Positions 2,134-64,000 of a stretch of 64,000 nucleotides of DNA are shown in pieces. Both the position numbers and the translations under genes were made by a program. Every line of letters starts with the position of its first letter. The first letter of the stretch is position 1. The stretch lies in NCBI RefSeq assembly GCF_988243305.1, contig NZ_OZ547136.1. One strand, written 5' to 3'. The notes beneath the pieces are model-generated. The model saw only the letters and a program-made list of their open reading frames with translations, was not told the DNA's origin and did no database searches.

Positions 2134-3531
2134 TTATTGTTTATCCTGCATATACGGCGTGTAAACCCCGTTCAGACTGTGCAGGAAAGCTACGATATCA
2201 TCCACATCCTCCTGCGGCAGCTCTTTGCCTACCTGATAGCGCAACATCAGTTTCACCGCCCCGTCCAGCGTCGGCACATCACCGCGATGGAAGTACGGTG
2301 CCGTTAGTGCAACGTTACGTAAACCGGGTACTTTCTGACGCAATTTATCGCGCTCTTCTTTAGTAACATTCATACGACCAATATCCGCCGCCGTAATTTC
2401 ACCAAAGTTAAAGTCTTTTTTCAGCCCCAACGGTTCGAAGGAACGTCCGCCGAGAATAATACCACCATGACAAGTTGCACATTTATTATCTTTAAATAAT
2501 TGATAGCCTTTTTTCTGTTGTGCCGTCAGCGCATTCTCATCTCCACGCAACCATTTATCAAATGGGGAATCCGGCGTAATTAATGTTTTCTCAAATTCAG
2601 CAATGGCATCAGTAATATTTTCGCCACTGAAACCTTGCGGATAGACTTCGAGGAACTGCGCTTTAAGCTGCGGATCTTTTTCCAGCTTAGCAATAATTTC
2701 GTCCCAGGATTTCGACGCCATTTCAATCGGATTCAACGGCGGTCCACCAGCCTGATCCTGCAATGTTGCCGCACGACCATCCCAGAACTGCTCAACGTTA
2801 AATACTGAGTTAAATACCGTCGGCGCGTTAATCGGCCCCACTGCGCCACCAACACCAATAGATGTTTTTCTGCCATCGACGCCCCCCGCATTCAACGCAT
2901 GGCAATGAGCGCATGAAATGGTGCTATCAGCCGATAAACGGGGATCGTGATACAGCGCAAAGCCCAACGCCACTTTTTGCGCATCGGTAGGCAGTTTTTG
3001 CGGGATGGGCTGCACCGGTTCATTGCGATGCTCCGGAGCAGTATCATTACTGGCGTAATATTCTGCGCGTTGTTTTGCAATCCAGGCGAGTATTTCCGCC
3101 CGCTCTTCATCACTTACCTTACCCGCCCAGTGTAGCGCGGTATAACGCGTTGGTGGCATGGTTTCATACTGCATCACCCATTCAATCTTATTCAGATCGC
3201 TTTGCGAAACGGGTTTATCAGCCAGCAGAGCCGCACGCACGGCCTCGAGGTTAAAAGATTTATATCCAAGCTTAATGTCGTAATCCATCAACTGTTTCGC
3301 GCCAGGAATATAATAATAGGCGGGTAATTCTGCCGAAGGCGTGTGGCAATAGTCGCATCCTTTTTCGCGGAGAAAGCCTAAAACCTTATTATTTTCACTG
3401 ACAGCAGATGCCTGAACATCAGCCTGTTTACTGCGTTTATTATCGTGGTACCACACATAACCAGATAACCCTAAATAGCAAATCGCGACGCCAGCCAGGC
3501 CGATCGCGGTAATACGTGAGACCATTTTCAT
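2134..3531 (-). CDS. ccp: Cytochrome c peroxidase (di-haem, periplasmic), 465 aa
   Basis: ORF track; two CxxCH haem motifs (CDYCH, CAHCH) and a third (CATCH); N-terminal signal anchor; recognised as YhjA/Ccp. Confidence 0.95.
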   Translation of the reverse strand: MKMVSRITAIGLAGVAICYLGLSGYVWYHDNKRSKQADVQASAVSENNKVLGFLREKGCDYCHTPSAELPAYYYIPGAKQLMDYDIKLGYKSFNLEAVRAALLADKPVSQSDLNKIEWVMQYETMPPTRYTALHWAGKVSDEERAEILAWIAKQRAEYYASNDTAPEHRNEPVQPIPQKLPTDAQKVALGFALYHDPRLSADSTISCAHCHALNAGGVDGRKTSIGVGGAVGPINAPTVFNSVFNVEQFWDGRAATLQDQAGGPPLNPIEMASKSWDEIIAKLEKDPQLKAQFLEVYPQGFSGENITDAIAEFEKTLITPDSPFDKWLRGDENALTAQQKKGYQLFKDNKCATCHGGIILGGRSFEPLGLKKDFNFGEITAADIGRMNVTKEERDKLRQKVPGLRNVALTAPYFHRGDVPTLDGAVKLMLRYQVGKELPQEDVDDIVAFLHSLNGVYTPYMQDKQ

Positions 3532-3905: not shown

Positions 3906-5585
<1,680 letters not shown>

Positions 5586-55940: not shown

Positions 55941-58010
55941 TTACTGCAACAGCGAAATATCCGCAACGCGCAGGAACAGTTCGCGCAGTTTCTCCAGCAT
56001 GGTCAAACGGTTAATACGCAATTCTTTGTCATCAACCATGACCATCACTTTATCGAAGAAGGCATCAACCGGTTCACGCAATTCAGCCAGTTCGACCAGC
56101 GCGTCCTGGTAACGACCTTCGGCGAAGTACGGCTCCAGTTTATCGCGCAGCACAACCACCTGCATCGCCAGTTTAATTTCTTCCGGCTCTTTCAGAGTAG
56201 AAGCATTCACGCGATCGCTCAGCACTTCGTCAGACTTCGCCAGAATGTTAGATACACGCTTGTTCGCCGCCGCCAGTGCTGCAGCTGCTTCCAGGGTACG
56301 GAAGTGCGATACCGCTTTCATTCGGGCATCGAAATCAGCCGGACGCGTCGGACGACGTGCCAGTACCGCCTGGATGGTGTCAACGGTGTAACCTTCGTCC
56401 TGATACCAGGCGCGGAAGCGACCGAGCATAAAGTCGATAACATCATCAACCACGTTGGCATTAGTCAGCTTATCGCCATACAGACGCACTGCTTCTTCGG
56501 TCAGCGTTTGCAGATCAAGGTTGAGGTTCTTCTCAACGATAATGCGCAGCACGCCAAGTGCGGCACGACGCAGCGCAAACGGGTCTTTATCGCCTTTCGG
56601 ATGCTGACCGATACCGAAAATACCCGCCAGGGTGTCCATCTTGTCAGCAATCGCCAGCGCACAAGCCACTGGGTTAGACGGCAGGTCATCACCGGCAAAA
56701 CGCGGCTGATACTGCTCGTTCAGCGCCACTGCCACATCTTCCGCTTCGCCATCGTGACGCGCGTAGTGCATCCCCATAACGCCCTGGGTGTCGGTGAACT
56801 CGAAGACCATGTTGGTCATCAGGTCACACTTAGACAGCAGGCCCGCACGGGTTGCGTGGTTAACGTCAGCGCCAATCTGTTCAGCAATCCAGCCAGCCAG
56901 CGCCTGGATGCGGTCAGTTTTGTCGCGCAGTGTACCCAGCTGTTGCTGAAACAACACGGTTTGCAGGCGCGGCAGGTTATCTTCCAGACGTTTTTTACGG
57001 TCGGTGTTGAAGAAGAACTCGGCATCCGCCAGACGTGGACGAACGACTTTCTCGTTACCAGAGATAATTTGCTGCGGATCTTTCGATTCGATGTTGGCAA
57101 CGAAGATAAAGTTCGGCAGCAGTTTGCCGTCGTTCGCATACACCGGGAAGTATTTCTGGTCACCTTTCATGGTGTAAACCAGCGCTTCAGACGGCACCGC
57201 GAGGAATTTCTCTTCGAATTTTGCGGTCAGCACAACCGGCCATTCCACCAGCGAAGCCACTTCTTCCAACAGGCTTTCGCTTAAGTCAGCGTTACCGCCA
57301 ATCTTACGTGCTGCTTCTTCGGCATCGGCTTTAATCTTCGCCTTACGTTCTTCGTAATCGGCGATGACTTTCCCGCGCTCACGCAGAATTTCCGGATACT
57401 GATCGGCGTTATCGATGGTGAATTCCGGCTCGCCCATAAAGCGGTGGCCGCGAATCACGCGATCGGACTGAATGCCCAGAATGGTAGCCGGAATAACTTT
57501 GTCGCCCAGCAGCAGGGTCACGGTGTGCACCGGACGCACGAAGTGCACGTCGCTTGCACCCCAGCGCATCAGTTTCGGGATCGGCAGTTTCGCCAGCGAA
57601 GTTGCAACCATATTCGGCAGCAGTGCTTCGGTGCTTTCGCCCTTCACGTGGGCGCGATACAGCAGCCATTCGCCTTTATCGGTAGTCAGACGCTCAGCCT
57701 GGTCAACGGTAATACCGCAACCACGCGCCCAACCTTCTGCCGCTTTGCTCGGTTTGCCTTCAGCGTCGAACGCCTGGGCAATCGCCGGGCCGCGTTTTTC
57801 GATTTCACGATCCGGTTGCGCTTCCGCCAGGTTAGCTACTTTCAGCGCCAGACGACGCGGAGCAGCAAACCATTGAACGGTGCCGTGTGCGAGGCCAGCG
57901 TTATCCAGCTCCACAGTAAAGTTCGCAGCAAAGGACTCAGCCAGGCTGCGCAGTGCTTTTGGTGGCAGCTCTTCAGTGCCGATTTCCACCAGAAAAGTTT
58001 TCTCAGACAT
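55941..58010 (-). CDS. glyS: Glycine--tRNA ligase beta subunit, 689 aa
   Basis: ORF track; recognised as GlyS. Confidence 0.97.
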
Positions 58011-58019
58011 AGCCGCCTC

Positions 58020-58931
58020 TTACTTATCTTTGTTGCACATCGGGAAGCCGAGGGCTTCACGGGAAGCGTAGTATGCTTCTGCCACTGCTTTGGTCAGGGT
58101 GCGAATGCGCAGAATGTAGCGCTGACGCTCAGTGACGGAGATGGCTTTACGCGCATCCAGCAGGTTGAAGCTGTGGGCGGCTTTCAGAATACGCTCGTAG
58201 GCTGGCAGCGGCAGCGGATTTTCCAGCGCCAGCAACTGCTGCGCTTCTTTCTCGTACTGCTCGAAGCAGGTGAACAGGAAGTCCACGTCCGCGTATTCGA
58301 AGTTGTAAGTGGACTGCTCCACTTCGTTCTGATGGAACACGTCGCCGTAGGTGGTTTTACCCAGCGGGCCGTCGCTCCAGACCAGGTCGTAAACGCTGTC
58401 TACGCCCTGAATGTACATGGCCAGACGTTCCAGACCGTAGGTGATCTCGCCGGTAACCGGTTTACACTCCAGACCACCAACCTGCTGGAAGTAAGTGAAC
58501 TGCGTCACTTCCATGCCGTTTAGCCACACTTCCCAGCCCAGTCCCCAGGCACCCAACGTCGGGTTTTCCCAGTTATCTTCCACGAAACGGATATCGTGGA
58601 TAGTCGGGTCCATGCCCAGCTCTTTCAGAGAACCAAGGTACAGCTCCTGAATATTGTCCGGCGATGGCTTAATGACCACCTGGAACTGATAGTAGTGCTG
58701 TAAACGGTTGGGGTTTTCGCCGTAGCGACCATCGGTCGGGCGACGAGAAGGCTGAACATAAGCAGCCGCCATCGGTTCTGGCCCCAGCGCGCGCAGACAG
58801 GTCATTGGGTGAGAGGTTCCCGCGCCGACTTCCATGTCCAATGGTTGAACAATGGTGCAGCCCTGGCGAGCCCAGTAATCCTGTAAGGTCAGGATCAAGC
58901 CCTGGAAGGTCCTGGTATCAAACTTTTGCAT
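58020..58931 (-). CDS. glyQ: Glycine--tRNA ligase alpha subunit, 303 aa
   Basis: ORF track; recognised as GlyQ; 9-bp spacer to glyS. Confidence 0.97.
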
Positions 58932-59025
58932 ATTATTTCGTGCTGGATACGTGTGGATTTAAAGGAAGGGATCAGTATACCCGCTGGATGGAAGATATAC
59001 AGTACGAAACGGGAAAAAGCAGGGC

Positions 59026-59334
59026 TTAACGCATGGAAAGATGCAAAAAATGGCCATCTGCGTCAAAAGAACAGACAAACTGCTCTTTACGGAAGGTATA
59101 ACCGCGCATTTCGTAGCTCCCCTGGAACTGTTCAAATGCGGTGACGTCGATTTTTTGCGCACCTGTATTATAGCGTTTTGCCGCCTGATCTTTGCATAGC
59201 CCTTCCATATTCAACGAACGCTGAGGATCAACCTTTACCCGTTGTGCTTTCTGCACGGGTGGCGGTGTAGAACAACCCACTAGCGCCATAAGCACCATAA
59301 GTGCCATTGCCGGAAAGAAAGAGTTCATCATCAT
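59026..59334 (-). CDS. ysaB: Small lipoprotein YsaB, about 99-102 aa
   Basis: ORF track; lipobox LVGC after three consecutive ATG codons; exact start among the three Met codons is uncertain. Confidence 0.85.
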   Translation of the reverse strand: MMMNSFFPAMALMVLMALVGCSTPPPVQKAQRVKVDPQRSLNMEGLCKDQAAKRYNTGAQKIDVTAFEQFQGSYEMRGYTFRKEQFVCSFDADGHFLHLSMR

Positions 59335-59508
59335 TAAATTACCGTCTGGTTTGCAGGTGAGTCTTATTATTTATATCGGTATAGTGGCTGATATCTTACG
59401 AATTTCCTTAAGCCTCTATAAGCTGTAGTGATAAAACTCAGATTATTCCAGTGCGCCAACCGAATGATTTATCGGTCAGACTTTTTTTAACCAGATACAG
59501 AGACACAG

Positions 59509-60504
59509 ATGCAGCCCAAAATTTACTGGATTGATAACCTGCGAGGGATAGCGTGTTTAATGGTGGTGATGATTCACACCACTACCTGGTATGTGACCAA
59601 TGCTCATAGTGTTAGCCCCGTCACATGGGATATCGCCAATGTTCTGAATTCTGCCTCTCGTGTCAGCGTGCCGCTATTTTTCATGATTTCCGGCTATCTC
59701 TTTTTTGGCGAACGCAGCGCCCAGCCGCGCCATTTCTTGCGTATCGGCTTATGTCTGCTTTTTTATAGCGCAATCGCACTGCTCTACATTGCGCTGTTTA
59801 CCTCCATCAATATGGAGTTAGCGCTGAAAAACCTGCTGCAAAAGCCAGTGTTTTACCACTTGTGGTTTTTCTTCGCGATTGCGGTGATTTATCTGGTTTC
59901 ACCACTGATTCAGGTGAAGAACGTCGGCGGAAAAATGTTGCTGGTGCTAATGGTGGTGATTGGTATTATCGCTAACCCAAACACAGTGCCGCAGAAAATT
60001 GACGGTTTTGAATGGCTGCCAATTAACTTATATATCAATGGCGATACTTTTTACTACATCCTTTATGGCATGTTGGGCCGCGCTATAGGGATGATGGACA
60101 CACAGCATAAAGCACTGTCGTGGGGGAGCGCCGCACTGTTTGCGACGGGGGTTTTTATTATCTCTCGCGGGACATTATATGAATTGCAGTGGCGCGGAAA
60201 TTTTGCCGATACCTGGTATCTTTACTGTGGGCCGATGGTTTTTATCTGCGCAATCACGCTATTGACTCTGGTTAAAAACACGCTGGATACGCGTACCGTT
60301 CGCGGACTTGGCTTAATCTCCCGCCATTCGTTGGGTATATACGGATTCCACGCCTTGATTATCCATGCACTGCGCACCCGGGGGATTGAGCTTAAAAACT
60401 GGCCAATACTCGATATTATTTGGATCTTTTGCGCGACGTTGGCAGCGAGTTTGTTACTTTCTATGCTGGTACAACGAATCGACAGAAACAGACTAGTGAG
60501 TTAA
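59509..60504 (+). CDS. wecH: Membrane O-acetyltransferase for enterobacterial common antigen (acyltransferase-3 family), 331 aa
   Basis: ORF track; polytopic membrane protein; recognised as WecH/YiaH. Confidence 0.93.
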
Positions 60505-60545
60505 ATAAAGGCCCGGTCACATTGGACTGACCGGGCTTATGTGAA

Positions 60546-60983
60546 TTATTCGCTGTATTCTTCCTGGGTAACCTGTGTTTCTTTTGGTGGGTTTATTCCG
60601 GCATCACGAATATTCTTCTGCACCGCTACTGCACCAAACAAGCTTAAGAAGAAAGCTAGTCCATAAAAACCTTTCTCGCTGAGTAATAATGTCGCATTCC
60701 ACAGACCTACCATCAGTAATGCAACAGAGATAATAAAGACAGTCAGGCAGGTCATATAATAAATGGAAGTGGTCGGTATGCCTTCATACTTGTCCCGAAC
60801 GGTCTTTTGATAAGACGCCGCAGAAAACAGTCCTAATACCAGTACGGCAAAATAATATCCTTTTTCATTTAACTGCATCTCTGCATTCCATAGCCCTAAC
60901 AGATAGGTAACGATACCACCAACGAGAGCTATCCATGACACAATACTGAATGCCGGAGAATAGGTTGATATTTTGTTGTCCAT
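60546..60983 (-). CDS. yiaA: Inner-membrane protein YiaA (YiaAB two-helix repeat family), 145 aa
   Basis: ORF track 60546..60986 begins with GTG; start placed at the adjacent ATG ([17 protein letters not shown]). Confidence 0.9.
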
Positions 60984-61028
60984 CACAGTATTCCTTTCAT
61001 TCCTGAATGTGTAAGAGTTTTATGTTGC

Positions 61029-61370
61029 TCATGCCGGGCGAAACAAACGCATTTGACCAAACAAGCAGACAAAAAAGGCGATAGGGTAGATCACCATTTC
61101 ATAAGCATTGATAGGTGCGTTTAAAACACCGATAAACAAGAGACCGATAGTGATTAACGCAACTAACTGGCAGATGTGGGTAAAAAAATCATCCAGTTGC
61201 CCGAGTTTTTCTGCGCGAAGATATGCATAGTTGCCAAAAGTTGCCGTCATTAACACGCCAAGAAAATAGCCTTTTCCACTTAACAATGGGCATGAGATCC
61301 ATAGCCCAAGCAGATAAACCAGCGCCCCGACAACAAATAATATTTTTGCCACAGTCTTTGAGGTTTTCAT
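61029..61370 (-). CDS. yiaB: Inner-membrane protein YiaB (YiaAB family), 113 aa
   Basis: ORF track 61029..61412 begins with TTG; start placed at the internal ATG (MKTSKTVAKILFVVGALVYLLGLW). Confidence 0.88.
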   Translation of the reverse strand: MKTSKTVAKILFVVGALVYLLGLWISCPLLSGKGYFLGVLMTATFGNYAYLRAEKLGQLDDFFTHICQLVALITIGLLFIGVLNAPINAYEMVIYPIAFFVCLFGQMRLFRPA

Positions 61371-61537
61371 AACGAGCTCCATATCTACCAGTGATACATT
61401 ACGAGTAACCAACGAAAGACAAAACTGAAAAATGCCATTAACAAATGATTTCAGAATAAATTCATACTAAATATTAATTAATTACTGATATATATAGATG
61501 TGAATTATCCCCCACCCGGTCAGGCAGGGGATAACGT

Positions 61538-62992
61538 TTACGCCATTAATGGCAGAAGTTGCTGATAGAGGCGACGGAACGTTTCTCGTCGTGGCTGATA
61601 AGCGGCATAACGCTGCGCATCTGGTAGATGCGACTGTTCTAACGGCAGTTGCGGCAACAACTCAATGAGCGATTTCTCTGGATTCGCCGCAATCTGCGCC
61701 AGCCTTGCTGCGCCCAGTGCTGGCCCCACATCCCCCCCCGTACGGTAATCGAGCCGCTGACCGCTGATATCCGCCAGCATCTGACGCCAGTACTCACTAC
61801 GCGCCCCGCCACCAATCAACGTAACACTTTGCGGTTTAATGCCGCAGGCATGCACGACATCCATGCCATCTGCCAGCGCATAACCCACGCCTTCCAGCAC
61901 TGCTCGCGCCAGTTCCTTGGGACCATGTTGATGAGTCAAACCAAAGAAAACCCCCTTCGCCTGGGGATTATTGTGTGGTGTACGCTCGCCGGAAAGATAA
62001 GGCAGAAACCAAACTGGCTCGGCACTTTCATCAGCCTGTTGAGCAGCCGCGATTAAAGCTGGGACATTGTTCAGGCCCGTTAATTTCGCAGCCCAATCCA
62101 GACACGACGCTGCACTCAGCATCACAGACATTAAATGCCAACGCTGCGGTAGCGCATGGCAAAAGCTGTGTACGGCGCTTTCTGGCTTGCTTAAGAACCC
62201 TTCGCTGACAGCAAAATAGACCCCCGACGTCCCCAGCGATAACATTGCCTGATTAGCATCAACCATTCCTACACCAACCGCACCAGCTGCATTATCACCA
62301 CCGCCTGCGACAACTGGCACCGCCGCCATACCCCACGCTTTCGCAACTTCAGGTAACAAAGCACCAGTAATTTCGCTGCCTTCGTATAATGCGGGCATCT
62401 GGTCACGAGATAAGTGGCAAGCCTGCAGCATGACGTCACTCCAGTCACGCTTTGCGACATCCAGCCACATGGTGCCAGCTGCGTCAGACATATCGCTGGC
62501 AAACTCCCCCGTCATACGCAGACGCAAGTAATCTTTCGGTAACAATACTTTGTCGATTTGACGGAATATCTCCGGCTCATGCCGCTGAACCCATAGCAAT
62601 TTAGGCGCAGTAAATCCGGGCATCATCAGGTTACCGGTAATCACCCGCGATTGCGGAACTCGCGCTTCCAGCAAAGCGCACTCTTGCGCACAGCGCCCGT
62701 CGTTCCACAAAATGGCAGGGCGTAATAACCGTTGCTGGGCATCCAGTAAGGTTGCACCGTGCATCTGGCCGGCAATACCCAATGCTTTAACGTCCTGCAG
62801 AGAATGCTGATCGCCCAGGGCTTTCATTGCGCGATCAGTTGCCTGCCACCACTGTTCCGGGTCTTGTTCCGACCAGAGTGGATGCGGGCGCGAAACGGTC
62901 AGCTTTTCCGTTTGCGAAGCAACCACCTCGCCCTGCTCGTTGAGCAAAATAACTTTTACGCCCGAGGTGCCAAGATCTATCCCGATATACAT
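61538..62992 (-). CDS. xylB: Xylulokinase (FGGY family), 484 aa
   Basis: ORF track; recognised as XylB (MYIGIDLGTSGVKVILLNEQGEVVASQ...). Confidence 0.97.
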   Translation of the reverse strand: MYIGIDLGTSGVKVILLNEQGEVVASQTEKLTVSRPHPLWSEQDPEQWWQATDRAMKALGDQHSLQDVKALGIAGQMHGATLLDAQQRLLRPAILWNDGRCAQECALLEARVPQSRVITGNLMMPGFTAPKLLWVQRHEPEIFRQIDKVLLPKDYLRLRMTGEFASDMSDAAGTMWLDVAKRDWSDVMLQACHLSRDQMPALYEGSEITGALLPEVAKAWGMAAVPVVAGGGDNAAGAVGVGMVDANQAMLSLGTSGVYFAVSEGFLSKPESAVHSFCHALPQRWHLMSVMLSAASCLDWAAKLTGLNNVPALIAAAQQADESAEPVWFLPYLSGERTPHNNPQAKGVFFGLTHQHGPKELARAVLEGVGYALADGMDVVHACGIKPQSVTLIGGGARSEYWRQMLADISGQRLDYRTGGDVGPALGAARLAQIAANPEKSLIELLPQLPLEQSHLPDAQRYAAYQPRRETFRRLYQQLLPLMA

Positions 62993-63015
62993 ATCGATCG
63001 TTCCTTAAAAAAATG

Positions 63016-63040
63016 CCCGGTATCGCTACCGATAACCGGG
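63016..63040 (-). terminator. Intra-operon hairpin between xylA and xylB (cccggttatcg guag cgataccggg plus U7 on the minus strand)
   Basis: Stem-loop followed by TTTTTTT in the 71-bp xylA-xylB spacer; candidate partial terminator or mRNA-stabilising element. Confidence 0.55.
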
Positions 63041-63063
63041 CCAACGGACTGCACAGTTAGCCG

Positions 63064-64000
63064 TTATTTGTCGAACAGATAATGGTTTACCAGATTTTCC
63101 AGTTGCTCCTGGCGACCACTCTGATGCACCGGAGACAAATTGTGTTCCTGAGCATATTTGGCTAAATCTGCCAGTGACATTTGGCCTTTCAGGATTTGCT
63201 GGCCTAATTCGCTATTCCAGCCGGAATAACGCTGCGCGATGCGTTTATCCAGCTCACCATCTTCAATCATGCGTGCTGCAATTTTCAGCGCCAACGCCAT
63301 CGTATCCATCGCGCCGATATGACCGTAAAACAGATCATATTTATCAGTACTTTGACGACGTACTTTGGCATCGAAGTTCAGACCGCCGGTGGTGAAACCG
63401 CCTGCTTTGAGAATTTCATACATCACCAGCGCATTCTCTTCCACACTGTTCGGGAACTGGTCGGTATCCCAGCCCAGTTGTGCATCGCCACGGTTAGCGT
63501 CGACAGAACCGAACAGGCCAAGCGCAATGGCGGTGGCTATTTCATGATGGAAAGAGTGACCTGCCAGCGTCGCGTGGTTAGCTTCAATGTTCAGTTTAAT
63601 CTCTTTTTCCAGACCAAACTGTTTCAGGAAGCCATAGACTGTCGCAGCATCGTAATCATATTGATGTTTGGTCGGTTCTTGCGGTTTCGGTTCGATAAGC
63701 AACGTACCCTGGAAGCCGATTTTATGTTTATGCTCAACCACCATCTGCATAAAGCGGCCCAGTTGTTCACGCTCCTGACGCAGGTCGGTATTTAACAGCG
63801 TTTCGTAACCTTCACGACCGCCCCACAGGACATAGTTTTCACCACCCAATTTATGGGTTGCTTCCATCGCTGTAACAACTTGCGTTGCCGCCCAGCTGAA
63901 GACTTCAGGATCTGGGTTCGTCGCAGCACCCGCACCGTAGCGAGGGTTTGTAAAGCAGTTAGCGGTTCCCCACAGCAGCTTCACGCCGCTCTCTTCTTGC
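63064..64000 (-). CDS. xylA: Xylose isomerase, C-terminal about 312 codons (gene continues beyond the right edge of the window)
   Basis: ORF track 63064..63984 is truncated by the window edge; the reading frame stays open to 64000; WGGREG motif; recognised as XylA. Confidence 0.95.

Follow-up and report, generated by a model that had tools for sequence, protein, structure and literature searches.

How can a canonical transcription terminator stand between two genes of one operon and still let polymerase through to the second? The question is raised by the spacer between xylA and xylB in a 64,000-nt stretch of E. coli chromosome (hereafter the window), where a strong hairpin and a run of seven U residues separate the coding sequences of xylose isomerase and xylulokinase. 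The assignment of the DNA to this locus comes from the xylA and xylB annotations that lie over the matches of a 301-nt query in complete E. coli genomes. A terminator placed between two genes of one operon must also let polymerase pass. The answer proposed here is that the hairpin and its U7 are very probably a partial terminator of the Rho-independent kind, internal to the xylAB operon, and provide the Hfq-dependent small RNA XylZ with its 3′ end. The element is not new; it is a rediscovery of the published and annotated XylZ terminator.

A sequence-only reading of the window had proposed an intrinsic terminator inside the operon. This is supported by a K-12 RNA 3′ end that falls on the last U in two independent maps and by a spacer which is identical in the two strains. 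On the nature of the element that reading was right about termination and missed the sRNA, which sequence alone could not have revealed; the same hairpin and U-run are both its terminator and its Hfq-binding 3′ end. The two roles it offered, setting the XylA:XylB ratio and protecting the 3′ end of xylA mRNA, are plausible.

The hairpin and its U-run

The spacer is 71 nts long (62993-63063) and lies between two minus-strand genes, with the xylA stop codon at 63064-63066 (features are collected in Table 1). On that strand it reads ...GUCCGUUG GCCCGGUUAUCG GUAG CGAUACCGGGC A UUUUUUU AAGGAACGAUCGAU AUG, the last triplet being the start of xylB. The hairpin as originally given, cccggttatcg-gtag-cgataccggg from 63040 down to 63016, is there letter for letter. 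Its stem stands with two amendments. The arms are 11 and 10 nts long, so that U63034 is bulged, and with one more G-C pair at its base (63041/63015) the stem reaches 11 bp, eight of which are G-C. Seven U residues are present, as claimed, at 63013-63007 and so outside the interval 63016-63040 assigned to the feature; they do not directly follow the reported arm, since C63015, which closes the stem, and the unpaired A63014 intervene.

Table 1. Features of the xylA-xylB region, in window coordinates (MG1655 coordinates in brackets)
Feature	Position	Strand	Remarks
xylA (xylose isomerase), C-terminal 306 aa	63064..64000 (306 aa at 63064-63984)	-	NCBIfam, E = 8e-171; truncated by window end
RNase E cleavage sites	63168..63169 (MG1655 3729547/3729548)	-	2 nt upstream of XylZ 5′ end; Bar supplementary table 6
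XylZ sRNA, about 160 nt	63007..63166	-	last 103 nt of xylA frame (100 coding + stop codon) and 57 nt of spacer
Internal RNase E site cluster	63052..63085 (MG1655 3729431-3729464)	-	around xylA stop, 5′ of hairpin; Bar supplementary table 6
Terminator hairpin GCCCGGU(U)AUCG-GUAG-CGAUACCGGGC	63015..63041	-	11 bp, one bulged U, 4-nt loop; identical in MG1655
U7 tract	63007..63013	-	from sequence; last U (63007) = mapped RNA 3′ end (MG1655 3729386)
xylB Shine-Dalgarno AAGGAA	63001..63006	-	adjoins U-run; 8 nt before ATG
xylB (xylulokinase)	61538..62992	-	NCBIfam, 1105 bits; ATG at 62992

A 40-nt segment with the hairpin folds at −19.3 kcal/mol, as against −8.8 ± 2.75 kcal/mol for 200 dinucleotide shuffles (z = −3.8), not one of which was as stable. 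In E. coli the significance of the fold is limited to this segment; taken alone, the whole E. coli spacer does not fold significantly better than expected (z = −1.27), and the value for a 91-nt region is −1.79. In a stringent scan of both strands of the window, a match had to have six or more T in a row and, ending no more than 2 nts before them, one hairpin with a folding energy of −15 kcal/mol or lower; the xylA-xylB site was the sole match. Shuffled windows yielded 0.5 sites on average, so that a single such site is unremarkable in itself and what is remarkable is its location in a 71-nt intercistronic spacer. A looser promoter/terminator consensus scan also reported the site, and is given no weight as evidence since it showed no enrichment over shuffles (7 found for 6.5 expected). 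The covariance models of Rfam 15, run over positions 58000-64000 of the window, gave no relevant match at E ≤ 1.

The site has what intrinsic terminators are recognized by: a GC-rich stem-loop, a U-rich tract 3′ of the stem and an in vivo RNA 3′ end 7–9 nts past it. The hairpin starts 22 nts downstream of the xylA stop codon, a distance at which a ribosome terminating there should not block its formation. The U7 after the hairpin also has the length, about seven U or more, that marks the tail of an Hfq-binding sRNA; in work ascribed to Otaka and dated 2011, a U7 run length was reportedly needed for Hfq action.

The small RNA XylZ

RefSeq annotates in MG1655 an ncRNA gene, xylZ (b4834, “small RNA XylZ”), at 3729386-3729545 of the minus strand. 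With the constant offset between the two sequences (MG1655 = window + 3666379) this is 63007-63166 of the window, so that the annotated RNA finishes on the final U of U7. The 71-nt spacer, with the hairpin, U7 and the approach to the xylB start, is 100% identical in the window and MG1655. Over the XylZ sequence as a whole 157 of 160 nts are the same, and the three positions at which the window strain differs are all in the coding part. All experimental data on XylZ are from K-12 and are transferred here by coordinates and by this identity.

XylZ was predicted from RIL-seq data under the name “xylB.xylA.IGT”, where it formed chimeras with 10 unique partners in stationary phase and was scored as sRNA-like by a classifier (Bar, Argaman, Altuvia and Margalit 2021, Front Microbiol, PMC8175672, Table 2B). 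Northern analysis in the same study gave a band in wild-type K-12 that was absent from a delta-hfq strain; the RNA accumulated in stationary phase and its size, from RNA-seq coverage, is about 160 nts. No transcription start site was reported near it. Cleavage by RNase E just upstream of the XylZ 5′ end is in the supplement to that study, the sites being drawn from the data of Clarke 2014, and a TIER-seq study (NAR 2024) has xylZ among four sRNAs whose RNase E processing was confirmed. The further cluster of RNase E sites around the xylA stop codon could yield shorter forms of XylZ.

The coding part of XylZ bears no extra synonymous-site conservation: third-codon-position identity is 0.559 over the last 34 xylA codons and 0.566 gene-wide. 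As to a conserved seed, a short GTCCGT motif on the 5′ side of the hairpin is common only to E. coli and Citrobacter. In the literature searched, RIL-seq partner counts were all that had been published on XylZ targets, with no validated target or functional study found.

On the reading preferred here, RNA polymerase coming from the xylA promoter would transcribe the GC-rich hairpin, and part of the polymerases would release their RNA in the U-run at 63007. RNase E would then cut the xylA-terminated transcript about 160 nts upstream (63168/63169), and the fragment ending in the hairpin and U7-OH would be bound and stabilized by Hfq and build up in stationary phase. Polymerases that read through would go on into xylB, with its Shine-Dalgarno unstructured right after the U-run. 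The element would thus have a threefold role, in that it would end and protect an xylA-only mRNA, limit transcription into xylB and supply an sRNA to the Hfq network. Published K-12 data show the position of the 3′ end, the RNA of about 160 nts and its loss in delta-hfq, the RNase E cleavage at its 5′ end and the chimeras with 10 partners. Termination rather than trimming as the source of the 3′ end, the fraction of read-through, an effect on the XylA:XylB ratio and a regulatory function of XylZ are what we infer.

Small RNAs of similar origin

Sponging of the sRNA RybB is the role reported for RbsZ (b4804), which comes from the rbsB-rbsK spacer. RbsZ was reported by Melamed et al. 2020, as cited in Table 2A of Bar et al. 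2021 (PMC8175672), and is labelled ‘small regulatory RNA RbsZ’ in RefSeq. Like XylZ it is classed as ‘intergenic in operon’ (Bar 2021), lies in a pentose catabolism operon just upstream of the gene for a sugar kinase, takes in the last part of the reading frame before it and undergoes RNase E processing. Its 3′ end is made up of GCGCCACC-CUAACAC-GGUGGCGC, then A and UUUU, and is 15 nts from the ATG of rbsK, where the XylZ end is 14 nts from that of xylB. It is unlike XylZ in that its sequence is unrelated, its U-run is UUUU, its stem has 8 bp and its loop 7 nts, and it is 234 nts long.

Other Hfq-dependent sRNAs that RNase E releases from mRNA 3′ ends, such as CpxQ, SdhX, MalH and NarS, share with XylZ a terminator common to the sRNA and its parent mRNA, a 5′ end made by RNase E, and stabilization by Hfq via the hairpin and U-tail. 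They derive from the last gene of a transcription unit, whereas the XylZ terminator is between two genes of an operon.

Conservation within E. coli

Of 5426 complete E. coli genomes, 5409 have a match to the 301-nt query, which was taken from around the site. An 86-nt region is at least 99% identical in 4184 of them and 95–99% identical in 1225. In these 5409 genomes the spacer is found at one place only (blastn, word size 11), and the U7 run is kept in the large majority; two of the 5409 do not have a full-length match to the spacer. Natural variants among those sampled (AVS0528, locus L083, 101-185; RIVM_C029670, locus L084, 101-186) are a U-run shortened to U6 and a G-to-A substitution by which the uppermost pair of the stem is lost.

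In E. coli FDAARGOS_1289 an IS200C has inserted inside the terminator U-run, at about window position 63009 (locus L082, 2557-3275, with tnpA at 2706-3164). The junctions are GGGCAUUUUU|GUGCAC... on the xylA side and ...AUUUA|UUUUAAGGAAC before xylB. In this strain the XylZ 3′ end should be altered, and read-through into xylB may be blocked.

The spacer in other Enterobacterales

A scan of one genome per species gave 80 xylA loci, among which Salmonella, E. albertii, E. fergusonii and Klebsiella pneumoniae are absent, and xylA-xylB spacers were extracted from 31 Enterobacterales species. A stable hairpin is present somewhere in the spacer of 27 of the 31, with a U-run after it in only some. 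In most Enterobacteriaceae the hairpin ends no more than about 25 nts from the xylB ATG, mostly at about 16–23 nts; where the spacer has REP-like palindromes, and in genera further removed, the hairpin of greatest stability is 27–69 nts from it. For the whole spacer, each of the 24 species tested had a folding z-score below zero (median −2.36).

The sequences of the hairpins are often unrelated between genera (GCGCCGC...GCGGCGC in Enterobacter, for example). Among seven related hairpins of the E. coli type the outer 6 bp are invariant, and one inner pair has changed on both sides, from U-A in E. coli to G-C in Citrobacter and Pluralibacter (judged by eye; Kluyvera is misaligned by one column), which is thin evidence of covariation. 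The U-run is lineage-specific and takes the form U7 in E. coli, U5AU in Pluralibacter, UUUCUUU in three Citrobacter species, U5GU in Pseudocitrobacter and U5 in Hafnia. Several Enterobacter species, Kluyvera, a Klebsiella species, Siccibacter and Yersinia aldovae have a spacer hairpin and no U-run. Spacers of 17–36 nts, free of a hairpin, occur in Pantoea stewartii (L019), Ca. Pantoea persica (L030) and Photorhabdus cinerea (L031), and the intercistronic hairpin is therefore not universal in the order. Comparison of these spacers, a modest sample that does not include Salmonella, suggests order-wide selection for a hairpin in this place, and that some lineages acquired the U-run, and hence an Hfq-type sRNA, only afterwards.

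Such a distribution raises the possibility that XylZ is a by-product. The hairpin would then have been selected only in cis, to protect the xylA 3′ end from 3′-to-5′ exonucleases and to give polarity, with xylA message in excess of that of xylB. XylZ itself would be left over from decay, a stable RNA that is bound by Hfq via its U-tail and regulates nothing. That stable spacer hairpins recur in so many species despite quite different sequences, that their folding z-scores are all negative, that most in Enterobacteriaceae end close to the xylB start and that many of them, having no U-run, are unable to make an Hfq-type tail is what this would lead one to expect; the body of XylZ, with no extra synonymous constraint and no validated target in the literature searched, fits as well. 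XylZ is, however, found in chimeras on Hfq with 10 distinct partners and has an sRNA-like classifier score, its U7 run is kept in the large majority of E. coli genomes, and RbsZ, with the same layout, is a reported sRNA that RefSeq lists as regulatory. We regard the by-product explanation as rather unlikely, and prefer that of a terminator which also supplies an sRNA to the Hfq network.

Termination or trimming

Intrinsic termination, in its standard geometry, leaves the RNA end 8 nts beyond the stem, where the U-run finishes, and the mapped 3′ end has exactly this position. In Term-seq data from MG1655 the dominant 3′ end is at 3729386 on the minus strand, and the flanking sequence printed with it puts the end on the last U (Adams 2021). 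Average counts there were 55,368 in LB at OD 2.0 and 32,591 in M63-glucose at OD 0.4; the end is absent from the curated list for LB at OD 0.4. A second study (TRS, Nat Commun 2023), with RNAtag-seq and term-seq data from LB and minimal medium, has a terminus at 3729381-3729391 with its peak at 3729386, classes it as “alternative primary in TU” for xylA, and gives in its supplement the same hairpin, −19.3 kcal/mol and 7 U. Its L/(L+D), which is 1 minus local readthrough, is 0.94–1.0 at this position; this does not amount to a termination efficiency, since a stable, Hfq-protected RNA is being compared with an unstable read-through RNA, and the high values may reflect build-up of Hfq-stabilized XylZ rather than efficient termination.

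The sequence-only reading had named 3′-end mapping as its check, and a lack of 3′ ends at the U-run as what would speak against it; in the published maps the dominant end is on the last U of that run. All the mapped data sets were obtained in conditions that do not induce xylAB. The TERMITe supplement does not mention the site, and the literature searched provided neither in vitro termination data on the spacer nor usable xylose-induced levels of xylA and xylB, and no other description of the spacer hairpin.

Rho may also act nearby. With bicyclomycin (BCM), a Rho inhibitor, a Rho termination region was scored at 3729414 on the minus strand (window 63035; Adams 2021, supplementary file 2), with upstream/downstream values of 37/58 without BCM and 115/480 with it (Rho score 2.66, p = 5e-5), these being low counts over 800-nt windows. 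In untreated LB cells there is no drop across the terminator in these data, again with low counts and 800-nt windows. Such values hint at a Rho-dependent component near the terminator.

On meeting a stable stem, 3′-to-5′ exonucleases are known to stall a few nucleotides short of it. XylZ could accordingly owe its 3′ end to processing, with transcription going on into xylB or to a Rho-dependent stop downstream, and exonucleases trimming the RNA back to the hairpin. The BCM-sensitive region and the U-less hairpins that relatives have at the same place agree with this, as does the stalling itself. Against it, the end lies exactly on the last U of U7, with the textbook spacing from the stem for intrinsic termination, one identical position is dominant in the data sets of two laboratories, and the U-run is strongly conserved within E. 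coli. This origin is quite improbable, and we take the 3′ end to arise by termination.

Relation to REP elements

REP-like palindromes GCCCGGTGGCGCTGCGCTTACCGGGCCTAC, paired with an inverted partner, are in the xylA-xylB spacer of three relatives, Enterobacteriaceae RIT691, Escherichia sp. ESNIH1 and Pseudescherichia vulneris. The stem base GCCCGGT...TACCGGGC is common to them and the E. coli hairpin, and it is all that the E. coli hairpin shares with these palindromes. ESNIH1 and P. vulneris have a further REP-like copy just after xylB. The copies are at 3430-3455 and 4979-5005 of locus L012 (ESNIH1), 868-893 and 2417-2443 of L027 (P. vulneris) and 3431-3456 of L006 (RIT691).

The window itself has a second hairpin with the same stem base (GCCCGGTCACATTGGACTGACCGGGC) at 60511-60536, in the interval where wecH and yiaA converge. 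With CTTTATTTAA after it on the minus strand, it is a candidate two-way terminator. The pattern GCCCGG-N8-20-CCGGGC has 2 matches in the window for 0.06 expected.

Could the E. coli hairpin then be a decayed REP-type element (repetitive extragenic palindrome) that is at this place by chance? The stem base shared with the palindromes of the three relatives, and the second GCCCGGT...ACCGGGC hairpin in the window, might be so explained. Yet a repetitive element should have dispersed copies, and at the sensitivity of blastn no E. coli genome has the spacer more than once; the central part of the hairpin does not resemble the REP-like sequence, and a GC-rich stem base is expected of any strong terminator. 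A REP origin is for these reasons very unlikely.

The approach to xylB

A consensus scan of the minus strand from 62993 to 64000 found no sigma-70-like site upstream of xylB. Given also the lack of a reported start site, expression of xylB probably depends on polymerases that pass the terminator. When the 91-nt spacer region is folded in silico, the xylB Shine-Dalgarno remains free of pairing, and AAGGA is kept at this position in most Enterobacteriaceae spacers.

It is extremely unlikely that the element serves mainly translation of xylB, with the U-run beside the Shine-Dalgarno as a site for ribosomal protein S1 or Hfq that tunes initiation: U7 does abut AAGGAA, the initiation region is unpaired in the predicted fold and a short distance from hairpin to ATG recurs across Enterobacteriaceae, but the hairpin and the Shine-Dalgarno are both kept in relatives that have no U-run, nothing speaks directly for such a role and it would not account for the mapped 3′ end.

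Another very strong hairpin, of 14 bp (GUUAUCCCCUGCCUGACCGGGUGGGGGAUAAU), lies at 61504-61535 on the minus strand, 2 nts past the xylB stop codon, and lacks a following U-run. It is thus the internal hairpin, and not the one at the end, that gives the xylAB operon a canonical hairpin-plus-U terminator.

What the internal terminator means

Intercistronic stabilizer hairpins or REP sequences, of the malE-malF type, are said to have been described by Newbury and colleagues in 1987. Like these, the xylA-xylB hairpin is between an upstream gene whose product is expected in larger amounts and a downstream one needed in smaller; relatives, too, have U-less hairpins or REP-like palindromes here. The E. 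coli element differs in its canonical U7, its mapped 3′ end and its single copy. Partial intrinsic terminators inside operons are also known, T1 in rpsU-dnaG-rpoD and the rplL-rpoB attenuator among them, and as in those cases the xylAB intrinsic terminator is ahead of a distal gene without a known promoter of its own.

These likenesses allow a tentative and rather doubtful scheme. The spacer hairpin would be an old and widespread element without a U-run, acting in cis on mRNA stability or polarity. In Escherichia, Citrobacter and Pluralibacter a U-run would later have been added, which would have made it a true terminator and so a source of an Hfq-binding sRNA. XylZ and RbsZ would be instances of a design that recurs in pentose operons, an sRNA-producing partial terminator before the kinase gene, by which transcription of the operon is tied to the Hfq network. 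Read-through past the terminator might then be regulated.

As a discovery the site has small value, the element being annotated in the K-12 reference and its 3′ end mapped by two laboratories. The extent of read-through under xylose does bear on the engineering of xylose utilization, for which the native xylAB cassette is often moved to other hosts with its spacer. For the Enterobacterales, the hairpins without a U-run in other genera might show how an sRNA arises from a hairpin that stabilizes mRNA.
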